DNA of 14,203 nucleotides from Fidelibacterota bacterium (GTDB lineage Bacteria > Fidelibacterota > Marinisomatia > Marinisomatales > JABMOV01), in the NCBI GenBank assembly GCA_046861395.1, contig JBHHUC010000058.1, positions 1 through 14,203 of the forward strand, in the 5' to 3' direction. The position numbers were made by a program, and so were the translations under genes. The notes below the pieces were generated by a model, which saw only the letters and a program-made list of their open reading frames with translations, ran no database searches and was not told where the DNA came from. Below, piece by piece: positions 661-9,245 of the stretch. Positions within the stretch are counted from its first letter, which is position 1; every line of letters begins with the position of its first letter.

Positions 661-826
661 CATATATTTACTAAAATGTTATTTCCTCGAAATTTCCGGT
701 ATTCGAAACCCTTCATGAAAAAGAATTGCCGACCTATCCTGGGAACCTTCTACCCGGGAATTAACTATTTCAGATTTTTCATAATGATGATAAATTGATA
801 TTGTTATCGCCCTTCAATAATTGCAG

Positions 827-3064
827 ATGACATCCTACTTATCATTCGAACGCTCCTTTCAGTCACGCAAGTTGCTATTGCAGCACTGTGATGGTTCGCG
901 GGCTGTCGTAACCGTTTTGATAGAAATCGTAAAGGAATTCCCGCCTGGGATTTCTCAGGATCGGTTAATTTCCTATTACCTGGAACTGGTGACCTATGTA
1001 ACAAGACATGTTTCCCGTGATTCACTGCGGTTTCGTCGTTTGGAAGATATGGATATCCTGCGAACCCATATCATGGGAATGAAAGACCTGATACCGGAAC
1101 CGGACTATCGCCGTGTAATCGAGGCTCTGACTTCCGTCATGGTGTGTACCTCATTGTATATCAGACAGTACGATCGTCTGGGGGCGTTGATCCCTGATCT
1201 GAATGATCTGGTGCCCAATTTACTTCGGAGCGGACCACGCCCGCCGGAAAATATGCTGGGCGACATATTGGACAAAGTGCCGGATAGTTCCCAATGGGAG
1301 GACCTGCAATTCTTTTACAATAAATTCCGGAAAAGGCAAGCCGGAAATAAGGCTCTGGTAGCCTTAGTGGAACAGATCTATGATGGGAACAGCGAGGCAA
1401 GAATATCCCATGGTTTGTTGAGTTCTTTAACGGTAACCATTGATGAACTCTCGGACAATGCAGAAGCGGATATCTTTACCTTCAATCATAAGACCATTTC
1501 CGGCAGTGATTTGATTTTCAGTCAGATTGAGAGTGCCTTTCAATTTGCCAAGCGCTATGTCCTGGGAGCTCACAACGCCCGGAATATGCATTATCATGCG
1601 TCTTTCTCCTTTGCCGATATTGAGGCGCTGTATTCGGGGAATTCCCTGGGATTGGCCATTGGTCTGGTGATGATATCGGCCTTGAGTCACCGGGAAGGAG
1701 CTACCTGGGAATATATCCTCAGACCGACCTTTGCCATGACGGGTACATTGGAATACACTGGCGAAATCAATAAGGTTGCGCCGGAAACAATTGTAGAAAA
1801 ACTGGAAGCGGCCTTCCTGTCTCCCGTAACGGCATTTGTCCTGCCGGCGGCCAACTATGCAACCGCTCAGAAGACTTGGGCTGACCTGAAAAAACGTTAT
1901 CCCCATAAAATACTTGACCTCATACCGGTAAGAACCATCCAGGATTGTCTTCATAACAACCAGTTGATTGTCCGGGAAAAACGCCGGCTGACACACCGTC
2001 TGAAATCCAAACGTTTCCAGCGACAGATCCCCACTTTTGCGGCATCCCTGATCACAGTGCTAATGGCCACCCTACTGGCCTATTTCATGATGGACAACAA
2101 CCCGGTAAAACTGGTGGCAAATGAAACGGAAATTCAAGCCCTGAACACGCGGGGACGCATCCTTTGGCGTCATGATTTTGATGAACCGCAATCCATTAAA
2201 TACACGGGTTTCCTGAGTCCGGTGGATATTCATGATTATGATGGGGACGGGGAAAATGAAATCTTCTATGTTGCCAAGACATTGCGAAGCCCTAATGCCG
2301 ATATTGTTTTCTTTTTTGATTCCGATGGCGAGGTAAAATGGTCGGCCCGCGAAACTCGTGCCATGGTTTTTGGCACGGAAGTCATGAATCCTTCCTATAC
2401 AGGTTATTATCTTATTCCGGTTGAAAAGAACAATGAACGTACGATTTTTACCGTTTTTAATCAAAAACCCTGGTATCCCGATGAAATTGTACAATATGAT
2501 TATCGGGGGAATAGACTGCAGGAGTTCTGGAATTCCGGACAAATTAAATACTTAGAATTGTATGATATGGAACAGGACGGTGAAGTGGAATTGATTGCCG
2601 GTGGTGGCAGTAATGATTACGATTCCCCCATCCTGGCAATATTTTCCCTGGATAAAGTATCCGGGTATTCACCGGTAGACGACCCCCATTATCGCCCTCA
2701 AGGCGTTCCTCCCGGGACATTCAAATATTTTATTCGTTTTCCCCGGCTTCATTCTTTAATGAGCACAAATTTACGCGAGTTCGTCCACCATATCAGGCTC
2801 GGCGATGCCAATCAAATACATGTATTTATTAATTCGGTATATGGACCGTATATCGTAACACTCAACTTTTCTCTGCAGGTTGTTGACTTTACTCCCGCTG
2901 ATAATTTTTTAAGTGATTATTATAAAAATTATGGTATCGAATATTTTGATGAATATCCCCGGGACAGCGTACTTGCCAGAATCAGGCAGATTGAATTCTG
3001 GGACGGCGATAGCTGGACCACAACACCGACGATCAATAAATACTGGTACGGGGACGGTGAATAA
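827..3064 (+). CDS. Membrane-anchored protein: N-terminal unknown region, Lon/S16-like protease domain, single TM helix, extracytoplasmic FG-GAP-like repeat/beta-propeller region
   Basis: YSGNSLGLAIGLVMISAL...FAMTGTLEYTGEINKV...IVEKLEAA...FVLPAAN aligns by eye to the Lon C-terminal pattern (DGPSAG...VAMTGEITLRG.V...LKEK..AA.....ILP..N). A basic stretch precedes the hydrophobic IPTFAASLITVLMATLLAYFMM (~2027-2092). DxDGDG-type motifs follow: DIHDYDGDGENEIF and LYDMEQDGEVELIAG. The start is ATG 827 or TTG 821. Confidence 0.75.
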   Translation: MTSYLSFERSFQSRKLLLQHCDGSRAVVTVLIEIVKEFPPGISQDRLISYYLELVTYVTRHVSRDSLRFRRLEDMDILRTHIMGMKDLIPEPDYRRVIEALTSVMVCTSLYIRQYDRLGALIPDLNDLVPNLLRSGPRPPENMLGDILDKVPDSSQWEDLQFFYNKFRKRQAGNKALVALVEQIYDGNSEARISHGLLSSLTVTIDELSDNAEADIFTFNHKTISGSDLIFSQIESAFQFAKRYVLGAHNARNMHYHASFSFADIEALYSGNSLGLAIGLVMISALSHREGATWEYILRPTFAMTGTLEYTGEINKVAPETIVEKLEAAFLSPVTAFVLPAANYATAQKTWADLKKRYPHKILDLIPVRTIQDCLHNNQLIVREKRRLTHRLKSKRFQRQIPTFAASLITVLMATLLAYFMMDNNPVKLVANETEIQALNTRGRILWRHDFDEPQSIKYTGFLSPVDIHDYDGDGENEIFYVAKTLRSPNADIVFFFDSDGEVKWSARETRAMVFGTEVMNPSYTGYYLIPVEKNNERTIFTVFNQKPWYPDEIVQYDYRGNRLQEFWNSGQIKYLELYDMEQDGEVELIAGGGSNDYDSPILAIFSLDKVSGYSPVDDPHYRPQGVPPGTFKYFIRFPRLHSLMSTNLREFVHHIRLGDANQIHVFINSVYGPYIVTLNFSLQVVDFTPADNFLSDYYKNYGIEYFDEYPRDSVLARIRQIEFWDGDSWTTTPTINKYWYGDGE

Positions 3065-6514: not shown

Positions 6515-6952
6515 TCACGGTGTCGTTACCGCCGTTACCACCGATGGCGTTGAAACGGCCGGTGGGCCGGAATCGGTGGAATCCAGCACAAGCTCATCCA
6601 AGTGCCTTTCATCCGCCAGATCCGTCGTATAGGCCTGACCGTTCCAATAAAACACCTGTCCCGGACCTAGGGTTTCGCGGGCGTCGGCGAAGGCTTCGGC
6701 AAAGGAAGGCATCAGCCGTTCCCCCGGTATATCCGGTACCGGTTCGGACCTGGTCTCGGCCGTCATTTCATTCAACCTGTCTACGGTTGGCAAGGAGACG
6801 GGAGTCTGGACAGTAGGTCTGACCGGAGATGGTTCGGGAATGATCAACGGAGCAGGGCGGTCATATTGCAGGACCAGGATCATGACGATGCCCACCGCTG
6901 CTCCGAGGAGTGCGACATTACGCTTCCGGGAAGTGTGCGCTTTTTTCCTCAT
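6515..6952 (-). CDS. Hypothetical N-terminally membrane-anchored protein (145 aa) with Pro-rich linker and small SFAEAF-ARx-GPG-F-WNG-YTT domain
   Basis: ATG at 6952 is preceded by the RBS AGAAAGGAAAACCT. Basic N-terminus, then TM segment VALLGAAVGIVMILVL, a Pro/Thr-rich linker and the compact motif SFAEAFADARETLGPGQVFYWNGQAYTTD. Confidence 0.8.
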   Translation of the reverse strand: MRKKAHTSRKRNVALLGAAVGIVMILVLQYDRPAPLIIPEPSPVRPTVQTPVSLPTVDRLNEMTAETRSEPVPDIPGERLMPSFAEAFADARETLGPGQVFYWNGQAYTTDLADERHLDELVLDSTDSGPPAVSTPSVVTAVTTP

Positions 6953-6988
6953 AGGTTTTCCTTTCTGTTTTGGTTCGATCAACGATTG

Positions 6989-7016
6989 TTCAACCGGAAA
7001 ATCATGCTGGGGTTCC
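6989..7016 (-). promoter_or_regulatory. ECF sigma-type promoter for the 6952 gene
   Basis: The minus strand reads GGAACC-CCAGCATGATTTTCCG(16)-GTTGAA, i.e. AAC-N17-GTTGAA. This predicts a TSS near 6984-6986. Confidence 0.55.
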
Positions 7017-7036
7017 TGGGAATTTCGGTAGGATGG

Positions 7037-7102
7037 AAAAATGGCGGCGCGAAGGTGTTGACCGAACCATAGAAAGGAAATCCTATGATCCCGCGCCGCC
7101 GT
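7037..7102 (-). ncRNA. Candidate small antisense RNA targeting the translation-initiation region of the neighbouring gene
   Basis: 9-bp GC stem (7100-7092 with 7051-7043) followed by AUUUUU. Inner hairpin GAUCAUAGGA/UUCUAUGGUU with loop UUUCCU. Positions 7057-7088 form an imperfect inverted repeat of 6949-6983. A -10-like TTGTAATTT lies immediately upstream. Confidence 0.6.
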
Positions 7103-7105
7103 AAT

Positions 7106-7118
7106 AAATTACAAAATT
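7106..7118 (-). promoter_or_regulatory. Putative -10 element (TAATTT) driving the candidate sRNA
   Basis: The minus-strand 13-mer AATTTTGTAATTT also occurs on the + strand at 11287-11299 upstream of pfp. It ends ~5 nt before the start of the GC stem. Confidence 0.45.
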
Positions 7119-7173
7119 GTCGCGAATTTGATCGACCCTTTCCTGGAATATTTTTAACTTATATCCTACGTAG

Positions 7174-7191
7174 TGACTCATTCCTGAGTCA
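7174..7191 (+). promoter_or_regulatory. Perfect 7-4-7 inverted repeat in the gap leader (operator or 5' hairpin)
   Basis: TGACTCA-TTCC-TGAGTCA lies just downstream of a -10-like TAACTT (7155-7160). Confidence 0.4.
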
Positions 7192-7227
7192 ATAAGCGCG
7201 ATGAAAGTTTTTGGAATTGGAGGATTG

Positions 7228-8247
7228 ATGAAAAAACCCTTGAAAATTGGATTAGTCGGATTTGGCCGAATCGGAAGAAATTTATTCCGGCTAGGCTATA
7301 AAAATCCGAGTTTATCATTCCAGGTGATCAGTGATTTTGGTCAGCCTGATGTATTACGGTATCTCCTGCTGCGTGATTCCGTTCACGGATTGATTGCGGA
7401 TGAAGTGGGCGTGGATGGTAATTACCTGGTGGTAAATAATCATCGGATCCGGGTTTTGCAGGGCGGTGAGCCGGGGTCCATTCCCTGGGATGCCTTTGAT
7501 GTGGACCTGGTGATCGAGGCCACGGGGAAATACCGGGGAGCGGCGGATTTACAGAAATATCTGGAAGCCGGGGCCAAGCGGGTTTTCGTAACGGTTCCCC
7601 CCGAAAATGCCATTGACCGGATTGTCATCCATGGTATCAATGAAGATACAATCCAGGCCGATGATAAAATTATTTCCACTTCGTCGTCTACCACCCATGT
7701 TCTGGCGCTGATGCTGAAAATCCTGGATGAATCGTTTGGGGTCCAGCGGGCCATGATGACGACGGTACACGCCTACACGTCGGACCAGCCGCTGGCTGAT
7801 GCCGTTCGTTCCGATCTCCGACGCAGCCGTTCAGCAGTGGAGAATATCATTCCCAATTCGACCTGGTCGCCGAAACTGGTGGAAGATTTAATGCCTCAGT
7901 TCCGTGGCAAACTGGAAGGCATTGCCTTCAACGTACCGGTCCCGGATGGCTCTTGTGTCGATTTGACTACCGAATTGAAAAAGGTCCCCACGGCGGAAGA
8001 AGTGAATGCGGTCGTTAAGGAATATGCCGAAGGATCATTGCAGGGAATTGTGGGCTATACCGACGACCCGATTGTTTCCAGTGACGTTATCGGCACCAGT
8101 GAAACAATGATATTTGACAGTCGTGCCACGATGGTGGCCAATGACAGTCTCCTGAAAACAATTTGCTGGTACGATAATGGCTGGGGGTATTCCAAACGAA
8201 TCCTGGAATTGCTGGAATCGTATGCCAATCTGGAGGTGGAAGCATGA
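7228..8247 (+). CDS. Type I GAPDH-like protein lacking the catalytic cysteine
   Basis: GFGRIGR, IEATGKY, TTVHAYTSDQ, RRSRSA.ENIIP, VPVPDGS.VDL and WYDNGWGYS are present. The active-site motif is STSSSTTHVLA instead of SNASCTTNCLA. Start is ATG 7228 (GGAGG at 7219-7223) or ATG 7201. Confidence 0.9.
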   Translation: MKKPLKIGLVGFGRIGRNLFRLGYKNPSLSFQVISDFGQPDVLRYLLLRDSVHGLIADEVGVDGNYLVVNNHRIRVLQGGEPGSIPWDAFDVDLVIEATGKYRGAADLQKYLEAGAKRVFVTVPPENAIDRIVIHGINEDTIQADDKIISTSSSTTHVLALMLKILDESFGVQRAMMTTVHAYTSDQPLADAVRSDLRRSRSAVENIIPNSTWSPKLVEDLMPQFRGKLEGIAFNVPVPDGSCVDLTTELKKVPTAEEVNAVVKEYAEGSLQGIVGYTDDPIVSSDVIGTSETMIFDSRATMVANDSLLKTICWYDNGWGYSKRILELLESYANLEVEA

Positions 8248-9245
8248 AAATTGCCATAAATGGTTTTGGACGAATCGGTCGTTCCGTTTTTCGTATCCTG
8301 AATACACGCGACGGGGTTGAGGTTGTGGCGATAAATGATTTAACCACACCTGACGCCCTGACCTATCTTTTGAAATATGACACCGTCATGGGCCGGTTTC
8401 CCGATACGGTGACGCTGGACGGCGACCGCCTGAAAACGTCCCGCAATACGGTGAAAATGCTGGCCGAACGTGATCCGGCGGCCTTGCCCTGGAAGGAAAT
8501 GGGAATCGACGTTGTGATAGAATCGACCGGTGTCTTTCGCAAACGGGCACAGATTCAGAATCATCTCGATGCCGGTGCCAGACGGGTCATCCTTACCGTC
8601 CCCGCTAAGGATGAAATAGATTATACGGTTGTCATTGGCGTCAATGATGACGGCTTAAAACCGGAGCATCGCATTGTGAGTAACGCCAGTTGTACGACGA
8701 ATTGTCTGGCTCCCATGGCCAAGGTTCTGAATGATAATTTCGGAATCGACCACGGTGTGATCAATACGATTCATGCCTATACCAACGACCAGCGTCTGGC
8801 GGATGTCCCTCACAGTGACTGGCGCCGATCCCGGGCGGCAGCGGAAAATGTTATTCCCACTACAACCGGAGCGGCGCGGGCCGTAGGGAAGGTTCTGCCC
8901 GAATTAAACGGAAAACTGGACGGCATTGCCATGCGTGTACCGGTTCCTGACGGTTCCGTCGTGGATTTTATAGCCCAGCTATCCCGTGACGTGACAATTG
9001 ATGAAATCAATGAAGCGGTTCTGGCGGCATCACGGACCGAACGCCTGTCCCGGATTCTGGAGTATTCCACCCTGCCGGTGGTATCATCGGATATTATCGG
9101 GAATTCCCATTCCTCCATTTTTGATGCCCCGTTCACCAAGGTTGTGGAAGGGAATCTGGTCAAAACGTTGAACTGGTATGATAATGAATGGGGTTACAGT
9201 AACCGGGTGGCGGATCTAATCGGTCTATTGGAGAAACTGGACTAA
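8244..9245 (+). CDS. gap: Glyceraldehyde-3-phosphate dehydrogenase, type I
   Basis: INGFGRIGR, an intact SNASCTTNCLAP, TIHAYTNDQ and WYDNEWGYSNR. The start overlaps the upstream stop (ATGA 8244-8247). Confidence 0.98.
   Translation: MKIAINGFGRIGRSVFRILNTRDGVEVVAINDLTTPDALTYLLKYDTVMGRFPDTVTLDGDRLKTSRNTVKMLAERDPAALPWKEMGIDVVIESTGVFRKRAQIQNHLDAGARRVILTVPAKDEIDYTVVIGVNDDGLKPEHRIVSNASCTTNCLAPMAKVLNDNFGIDHGVINTIHAYTNDQRLADVPHSDWRRSRAAAENVIPTTTGAARAVGKVLPELNGKLDGIAMRVPVPDGSVVDFIAQLSRDVTIDEINEAVLAASRTERLSRILEYSTLPVVSSDIIGNSHSSIFDAPFTKVVEGNLVKTLNWYDNEWGYSNRVADLIGLLEKLD

Follow-up and report, generated by a model that had tools for sequence, protein, structure and literature searches.

A conserved candidate antisense RNA encoded in tandem upstream of a membrane protein gene with an ECF-type promoter in Fidelibacterota

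RNA-OUT, CopA and SymR are cis-encoded antisense RNAs in which pairing is initiated at a loop and leads to a near-complete duplex over the translation initiation region of the target. The cis-encoded Sib RNAs, as far as the source material available to us describes them, likewise show their seed in a loop and form a long duplex over that region. In IstR-1/tisB, AgrB/dinQ, OrzO/zorO and OhsC/shoB, the RNA gene lies 5′ of a single target without overlapping it, shows long complementarity to the 5′ UTR, and is expressed constitutively, the membrane-protein mRNA that it counters being induced by stress (PMC5668327, PMC4147584, PMC8594479). In the accessible parts of these papers the two genes are divergent, the RNA binds far upstream of the RBS, and the targets are peptides of ~30 aa with long processed leaders; type I toxins are 20-60 aa long (PMC8594479). 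OppZ and CarZ, in the sections of their description that we could consult, are same-strand sRNAs of 3′ UTR origin that repress translation of a gene at their own locus, being products of RNase E that act on their own upstream operon (PMC7398697).

We analyzed a window of 14,203 nt (contig JBHHUC010000058.1; the whole stretch of DNA under study) from a genome of Fidelibacterota, the phylum to which its atlas neighbors also point and the former Marinimicrobia according to the part of PMC11652737 available to us. The original prediction, made from the letters of the window, had placed a self-contained sRNA upstream of a gene whose 5′ UTR, SD and AUG it could pair with. The features of the locus, with the evidence for each, are as follows:

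6515..6952, minus strand: target gene encoding 145 aa (transmembrane helix at the N terminus, then a disordered linker and a small helix-beta-hairpin module)
6949..6983, minus strand: predicted 5′ leader, SD and AUG of the target (inverted arms, duplex, promoter position)
6992..7016, minus strand: ECF-type promoter of the target gene, GGAAC, 16-17 nt, GGTT (motif common to homolog loci)
7037..7102, minus strand: candidate antisense sRNA of ~65 nt with predicted ends, here called the element (fold, covariance-model match, homologs)
7037..7041, minus strand: U tract past the stem, five U, a terminator-like 3′ end (5-8 T in the 8 nt 3′ of the clamp, 33/33 loci)
7043..7051, minus strand: 3′ arm of the 9-bp GC closing stem, here called the clamp (fold and covariation)
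7057..7088, minus strand: antisense body, complementary to 6949-6983 (inverted arms, duplex energy, family comparison)
7075..7080, minus strand: hairpin loop displaying the anti-SD UUUCCU (unpaired probability ~0.9; predicted in all six families)
7092..7100, minus strand: 5′ arm of the clamp (fold and covariation)
7106..7113, minus strand: housekeeping-type -10-like motif of the RNA, TGTAATTT (motif near the clamp in all element loci)

The element resembles the IstR-1 group in lying 5′ of a single predicted target without overlap, in its long complementarity to the leader, and in that a constitutive RNA would face the stress-induced mRNA of a membrane protein. It differs from that group in being in tandem with its gene (33/33 loci) and pairing directly across the SD and AUG, in having a target of 145 aa with a leader of ~35 nt, and in that the target has an ECF-type promoter instead of control by LexA and encodes a protein with no sign of toxicity. 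Since element and gene lie in tandem on the same strand, the complementary parts form an inverted repeat in the DNA, so that fold-back in cis is possible. At ~65 nt and with 30 bp in three blocks, the predicted RNA is within the range given for type I antitoxin RNAs (60-200 nt, at least 15 nt of complementarity). We do not place it among the non-overlapping type I antitoxins because in those, as described in the excerpts available, the RNA is divergently encoded, pairs far away from the RBS and acts on peptides of 20-60 aa. Like OppZ and CarZ, the element often lies at the 3′ end of an operon, a co-directional gene ending at most 130 nt upstream of it in 18 of the 27 loci inspected. Unlike them, it would act on the next, separately promoted gene; it also has a promoter motif of its own where the upstream gene is divergent, and Hfq was not found in the host genome. 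Whereas RNA-OUT, CopA, Sib and SymR overlap their targets and are thus automatically complementary, the two copies are separate here and must co-evolve, which they do. In the mostly open-access literature searched, we found no tandem upstream RNA of this kind, nothing on sRNAs of Marinimicrobia and no paper joining that phylum with antisense small RNAs, although the supplementary tables of large ncRNA screens could contain the motif; the accessible text of PMC12101431 held no matching case. Judged from its sequence, the element is probably a previously unlisted RNA family that works like the IstR-1-type antitoxins.

The all-GC closing stem and U tract noted earlier are both present, and the inner hairpin does display UUUCCU in the RNAfold structure of 7037-7102(-). 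This fold has an energy of -34.3 kcal/mol (z -5.96; none of 200 shuffles was as good), compared with a weaker -27.4 kcal/mol (z -4.56) for the plus strand of the element. When a clamp-plus-U filter was applied to 1090 crude gene starts of the host genome, 53 had any clamp and two reached -30, the element locus being the extreme. The loop of 40 nt enclosed by the clamp is unusual for an intrinsic terminator, and the element was not called by a simple terminator scan, which counts against the reading as an sRNA. No Rfam family matched the window's element at E<=1, and none scored near the gathering threshold in 11 homolog loci, in keeping with the earlier view that this is not a known RNA family. 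The element is a single copy in the host genome by both BLAST and covariance model, and an order-wide search gave one strong model match per genome. A MITE or REP-type repeat, the former of which had been named as a possible source of the inverted arms, is thereby ruled out.

The complementarity consists of two inverted arm pairs, 6949-6966/7071-7088 (18 nt, 94%) and 6971-6983/7057-7069 (13 nt, 92%). Computation of the RNA-leader duplex confirmed the blocks of 13, 10 and 7 bp that had been described, with a single G-U pair, within the 13-bp block. The duplex energy is -47.9 kcal/mol, compared with -20.6 +/- 3.7 for 500 dinucleotide shuffles (best shuffle -33.2), and once the cost of unfolding the two RNAs is counted, the gain left is modest, at -10.8 in the window and -3.3 to -24.8 in the eight loci tested, which counts against the sRNA reading. 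G-U pairs had also been used to argue for a minus-strand RNA. That argument stands for the RNA's own fold, since the gene-sense strand of the element folds better in 33/33 loci, and fails for the intermolecular duplex, where G-U accounts for 63/1066 pairs with the sense strand and 81/1065 with the opposite strand over all loci and gives no orientation. In a scan of 4155 crude start windows the element's own gene ranked second (-43.4, mean -17.9, sd 4.5); the top rank is a short ORF with a weak SD that looks spurious, and the third rank is 5.7 kcal/mol behind the own target. The element thus has one outstanding predicted target. A generic scan for upstream sequences antisense to each gene's own start gave an output dominated by GC-rich starts. 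Hfq and LSM were not found in the host genome, which is 94% complete; RNase III is present.

Homologs of the target protein, 134-200 aa long, occur in 156 of 384 genomes of the phylum. Our homolog set was drawn from the initial searches and from 60 further gene regions picked among the full-length matches listed, and comprises 93 loci once duplicates are removed; several g14 matches from small genomes, matches to the domain alone and 75 matches beyond those listed are not part of it. Conservation in relatives had been called for, and was found: an intact, clamp-closed antisense element is present at 33 of the 93 loci, 75-346 nt 5′ of the start codon, in six families of Fidelibacterota (f1, f2, f8, f10, f11 and f16). 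Stem pairing and the T-rich tail are partly selected features, because the filter required at least seven stem pairs and such a tail. The covariance model added a 34th locus, in G050, where the clamp is damaged. The homolog in G149 (L160 about 505-900) is pseudogenised by loss of its start codon and by an internal stop, and the element beside it has a decayed clamp, which speaks for the sRNA reading. Run on 151 genomes of the order, the covariance model gave 27 strong matches, 25 of them training loci and all 27 in genomes that bear the gene. In 101 genomes of the class, the model gave no strong match beyond the order, with limited sensitivity; in both searches 34-51 of several hundred candidates per genome were scored. 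Weaker model matches were rejected, one in G104 lying in a coding region and most others having no clamp and falling in sequence that is coding or antisense to an RBS. When genome contigs were scanned for a DNA pattern, the matches listed were mostly chance hits; the model was run on 80 of the 120 listed loci and recognised a single true homolog, whose sequence equals that of a known f2 element. A family-specific pattern recovered one metagenomic locus, nearly identical to that of G003, and a loose clamp pattern returned noise.

At 60 of the 93 gene loci there is no adjacent intact element, which counts against the sRNA reading and means that the element is dispensable in many lineages. Detached copies were sought in element-less lineages with the model (10 genomes), leader BLAST (9 genomes) and a duplex scan (10 long loci), with none convincing; the duplex scan recovered only the G160 copy described below.

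The sequences of both the clamp and the antisense body change between relatives in a way that preserves pairing. In the clamp, 99.3% of 288 cells are paired and there are 55 two-sided changes, a result reached in 0/500 shuffles, while slid registers are 29-65% paired; these counts are inflated by kinship, the 33 loci being kin that form about six to eight independent groups. As for pairing with the leader, 28 of the 33 RNAs pair better with their own leader than with the best leader from another family (exceptions: L025, L027, L009, L074 and L003), and cognate duplexes range from -30.0 to -52.3, compared with means of -20.0 to -29.6 with other families. Tabulated by family, RNAs pair best with leaders of their own family, apart from those of f11, for which f2 leaders are as good or better. 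At positions -6 to -1 before the AUG and at those flanking a GATC block, the families use several different types of Watson-Crick pair. In five families both arms are most conserved at this block; f16 lacks it but keeps the complementarity. The anti-SD is predicted in the loop of the inner hairpin in all six families, whose hairpin stems share little sequence. A check had been proposed of whether the loop varies with the RBS of each homolog while the GC stem is retained, and the comparison bears this out. On this comparative evidence, the element is a real, conserved RNA element with unusually clear co-evolution between RNA and target.

The motif GGAAC, 16-17 nt, [CTG]GT[AT] occurs 5′ of 73 of the 93 homolog genes, compared with 0.4% of shuffles. 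The separate ECF-like promoter that had been recognised between element and gene is conserved, facing the gene, in 32 of the 33 element loci. In 27 of these 32 loci the first block of at least six pairs begins 4-9 nt past the match to the -10, so that pairing begins at the predicted 5′ end of the mRNA, as the original prediction had it for the window. In the host genome the motif was found 5′ of 14 listed starts, among them genes for a DegP-like trypsin-PDZ protease, MsrB, HtpG and a PDZ protein, which we take to be an RpoE-like envelope/heat stress regulon. It also occurs 157 nt 5′ of an ECF sigma gene on contig C123. By motif match only, then, it is common to the sigma gene and envelope-stress genes, the pattern expected of an ECF (RpoE-like) regulon. 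For the RNA itself, TA[AG][AT]TT lies at most 25 nt from the clamp in 33/33 loci, compared with 13% of shuffles, for a pattern picked after viewing the alignment. The related motif YGTAWWTT was counted 5′ of 735 genes 43 times in sense and 21 times in antisense orientation (13 expected); the recurrence of the -10-like motif upstream of pfp, reported earlier, was reproduced, and similar hexamers precede many tRNA genes, the strict form only 6/39. In f10 the putative -10 motif overlaps the stop codon of the upstream gene, which counts against the sRNA reading.

The linker of the target protein is predicted with low confidence and the helix-hairpin module well. We found no Pfam match, one marginal PHROG match in 1 of 27 members, no match to a toxin family, and nothing better than E 0.2 against the PDB; a fold search with the whole protein gave a best Z of 3.1, on the membrane helix only, and no viral fold at E<=0.001. 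The 35-aa module recurs in 3687 clusters, often in 2-4 copies, and is a widespread repeat domain without a Pfam family (P0003, P0016, P0046, P0142 and others). The module also occurs in fusions, one with a long protein resembling outer-membrane receptors and another with an amidase, and among 48 long carriers scanned no family explained it.

At 26 of the 93 loci, all without the element, a longer ECF leader holds a hairpin that resembles a terminator; its 5′ arm is purine-rich and SD-like, and it has a U tract (L010, L012-L014, L016, L018-L020, L022, L024, L026, L029 and 14 more). Rfam gave no match in three of these loci. Possible roles of this hairpin are attenuation or service as an sRNA, ECF-dependent and 50-110 nt long. 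The two devices occur together in 0/33 element loci and neither occurs in 34 loci, including damaged and detached cases; we give no statistic for this exclusivity because the pattern is lineage-bound. The distribution suggests that basal output of the target gene is dampened in two different ways, other lineages having neither device.

From the sequence, its conservation and covariation and the promoter motifs observed, we infer transcription, termination, pairing in trans, a threshold and a role for RNase III. Transcription of the antisense sRNA would start at a housekeeping-type promoter of its own; in some lineages the RNA might be released from the 3′ end of an upstream operon instead. It would end at the clamp-plus-U tract. 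The anti-SD in its loop would nucleate on the SD of the ECF-promoter mRNA of the neighboring gene, and the duplex would then zip across nearly the whole short leader and the AUG, blocking ribosome loading and probably feeding RNase III. In this way basal ECF transcripts would be absorbed, and the membrane protein would be made only once envelope or heat stress lifts the mRNA above the RNA pool. Because the RNA lies in tandem with the gene, read-through transcripts could fold back on their own RBS, so that read-through from upstream would be silenced too. We consider a dedicated trans-acting antisense silencer with a cis back-up to be the best explanation, with a probability of about two in three. 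More tentatively, the locus may be a 65-nt tandem "mirror" module working without Hfq that combines termination of upstream transcription, silencing of read-through in cis and a trans threshold on the ECF-stress mRNA, co-evolving across six families of an almost uncultured phylum and replaced in sister lineages by a leader terminator; this fuller version is less likely than not. If true, such a three-job module would be an antisense layout absent from the literature searched.

An insulator acting in cis only, in which the element terminates transcription, read-through RNA folds onto the RBS, and only transcripts from the ECF promoter are translated, would need no RNA in trans. Read-through fold-back had been raised from the outset as an alternative, and predicted equilibrium folds agree with it in part: the leader is paired with the element in 27/33 loci, whereas the clamp wins in 6/33, which speaks against it. 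In the window, the SD is predicted to be unpaired at 0.02 in the read-through RNA and at 0.66 in the short ECF transcript. Taken together, the fold-back and the frequent co-directional 3′ ends upstream, both of which favor an insulator, indicate that termination and silencing in cis may be among the functions of the element, which might double as terminator where it lies at the 3′ end of a co-directional gene. Covariation would be expected of an insulator as well. However, the upstream gene is divergent in the window's own family (4/4), so the element cannot be that gene's terminator, and only the element's own promoter reads in from upstream there. Nor would action in cis need an anti-SD displayed in a loop, or complementarity that stops at the ECF start, and the spacer between element and gene is free to vary. 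A detached copy bears on the same question. In G160 the element is 5.6 kb away from the gene, beyond a cyanophycin operon on the opposite strand, and retains pairing with its own leader (-36.2). This is weak evidence for action in trans, because the copy stands at the end of an operon, its duplex with the leader of G161 (-39.5) is slightly stronger than that with its own leader, and G161, a sister with the same insertion, has lost the element, none being found at the equivalent site or elsewhere at E<0.005; the G160 copy may be kept as a terminator. Overall, we regard the insulator without a trans RNA as unlikely. The cyanophycin-type cluster inserted next to the gene in G160 and G161 (L152 1881-7228 and L153 1963-7310) comprises two synthetase-like genes and one resembling a cyanophycinase gene, as judged by eye in translation.

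Three further explanations are less likely still. If the locus were a type I toxin-antitoxin pair, the protein would be toxic when leaky and the RNA its antitoxin, and a single dedicated target, a membrane-anchored product, a stress promoter and the other dampening device (the leader terminator) at 26 other loci would fit. A protein of 134-200 aa is far from the 20-60 aa given for type I toxins in the available part of PMC8594479, no toxin family matched, and 32 loci have neither device nor a known remnant, so that we find such a pair improbable. It is also conceivable that the arms act as DNA, either as inverted repeats that flank and flip the ECF promoter (a phase-variable inverton) or as a cruciform. 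The two arms do flank the promoter and the G-U pairs of the duplex favor neither strand, but the arms differ by indels of several nt and by mismatches in all families, the promoter motif faces the gene in 32/33 loci, the additional clamp, the inner hairpin and the U tract distinguish one strand from the other, and no recombinase was recognised by eye among the neighbors of 27 loci, which together leave this explanation little credence. Comparison of contigs from four runs of a single sample revealed neither joints nor differences, with the proviso that contigs drop rare variants. Equally hard to credit is a decoy made from the plus strand, a transcript toward gap whose sense copy of the leader would sponge a regulator or protein binding the GATC-containing motif. 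Its basis would be the fold of the plus strand and the conservation of the GATC block in five families; yet the minus strand folds better in every locus and carries the U tract and the -10, and f16 is complementary without the block.

As the literature searched held no work on Marinimicrobia and antisense small RNAs, the element could rank as an early regulatory RNA family, with its target predicted, in a marine phylum of wide distribution. An RNA that follows a single target base by base without overlapping it offers a natural record of how sRNA and target co-evolve, and a simple origin by inverted duplication of a leader is suggested. The tandem layout lets cis and trans silencing be told apart experimentally, and the element could serve as a compact leak-suppression part for inducible promoters. 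The two mutually exclusive devices flag an uncharacterised envelope-stress protein as worth study.

Several further observations concern neighboring genes. Two tandem glyceraldehyde-3-phosphate dehydrogenase genes occupy 7201-9245 of the window, a pair also present in G161; the first has SSSTT where the second has SCTT. We take SCTT to be the usual GAPDH motif, and the first gap gene may presumably lack the catalytic cysteine. Just 5′ of this gene, at 7156-7209, is an imperfect 25-nt inverted repeat with a palindromic core, a possible operator. At 821-3064 we found a 747-aa ORF that combines a Lon-type protease-like segment, a membrane helix and a beta-propeller-like region, and that has only a sub-threshold FG-GAP match in Pfam. 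Elsewhere in the host genome (G000), at about 28600-32400 of contig C63, a FliA-like sigma factor gene was seen by eye beside an FlhG/MinD-like gene, which suggests the presence of flagellar genes in this organism.
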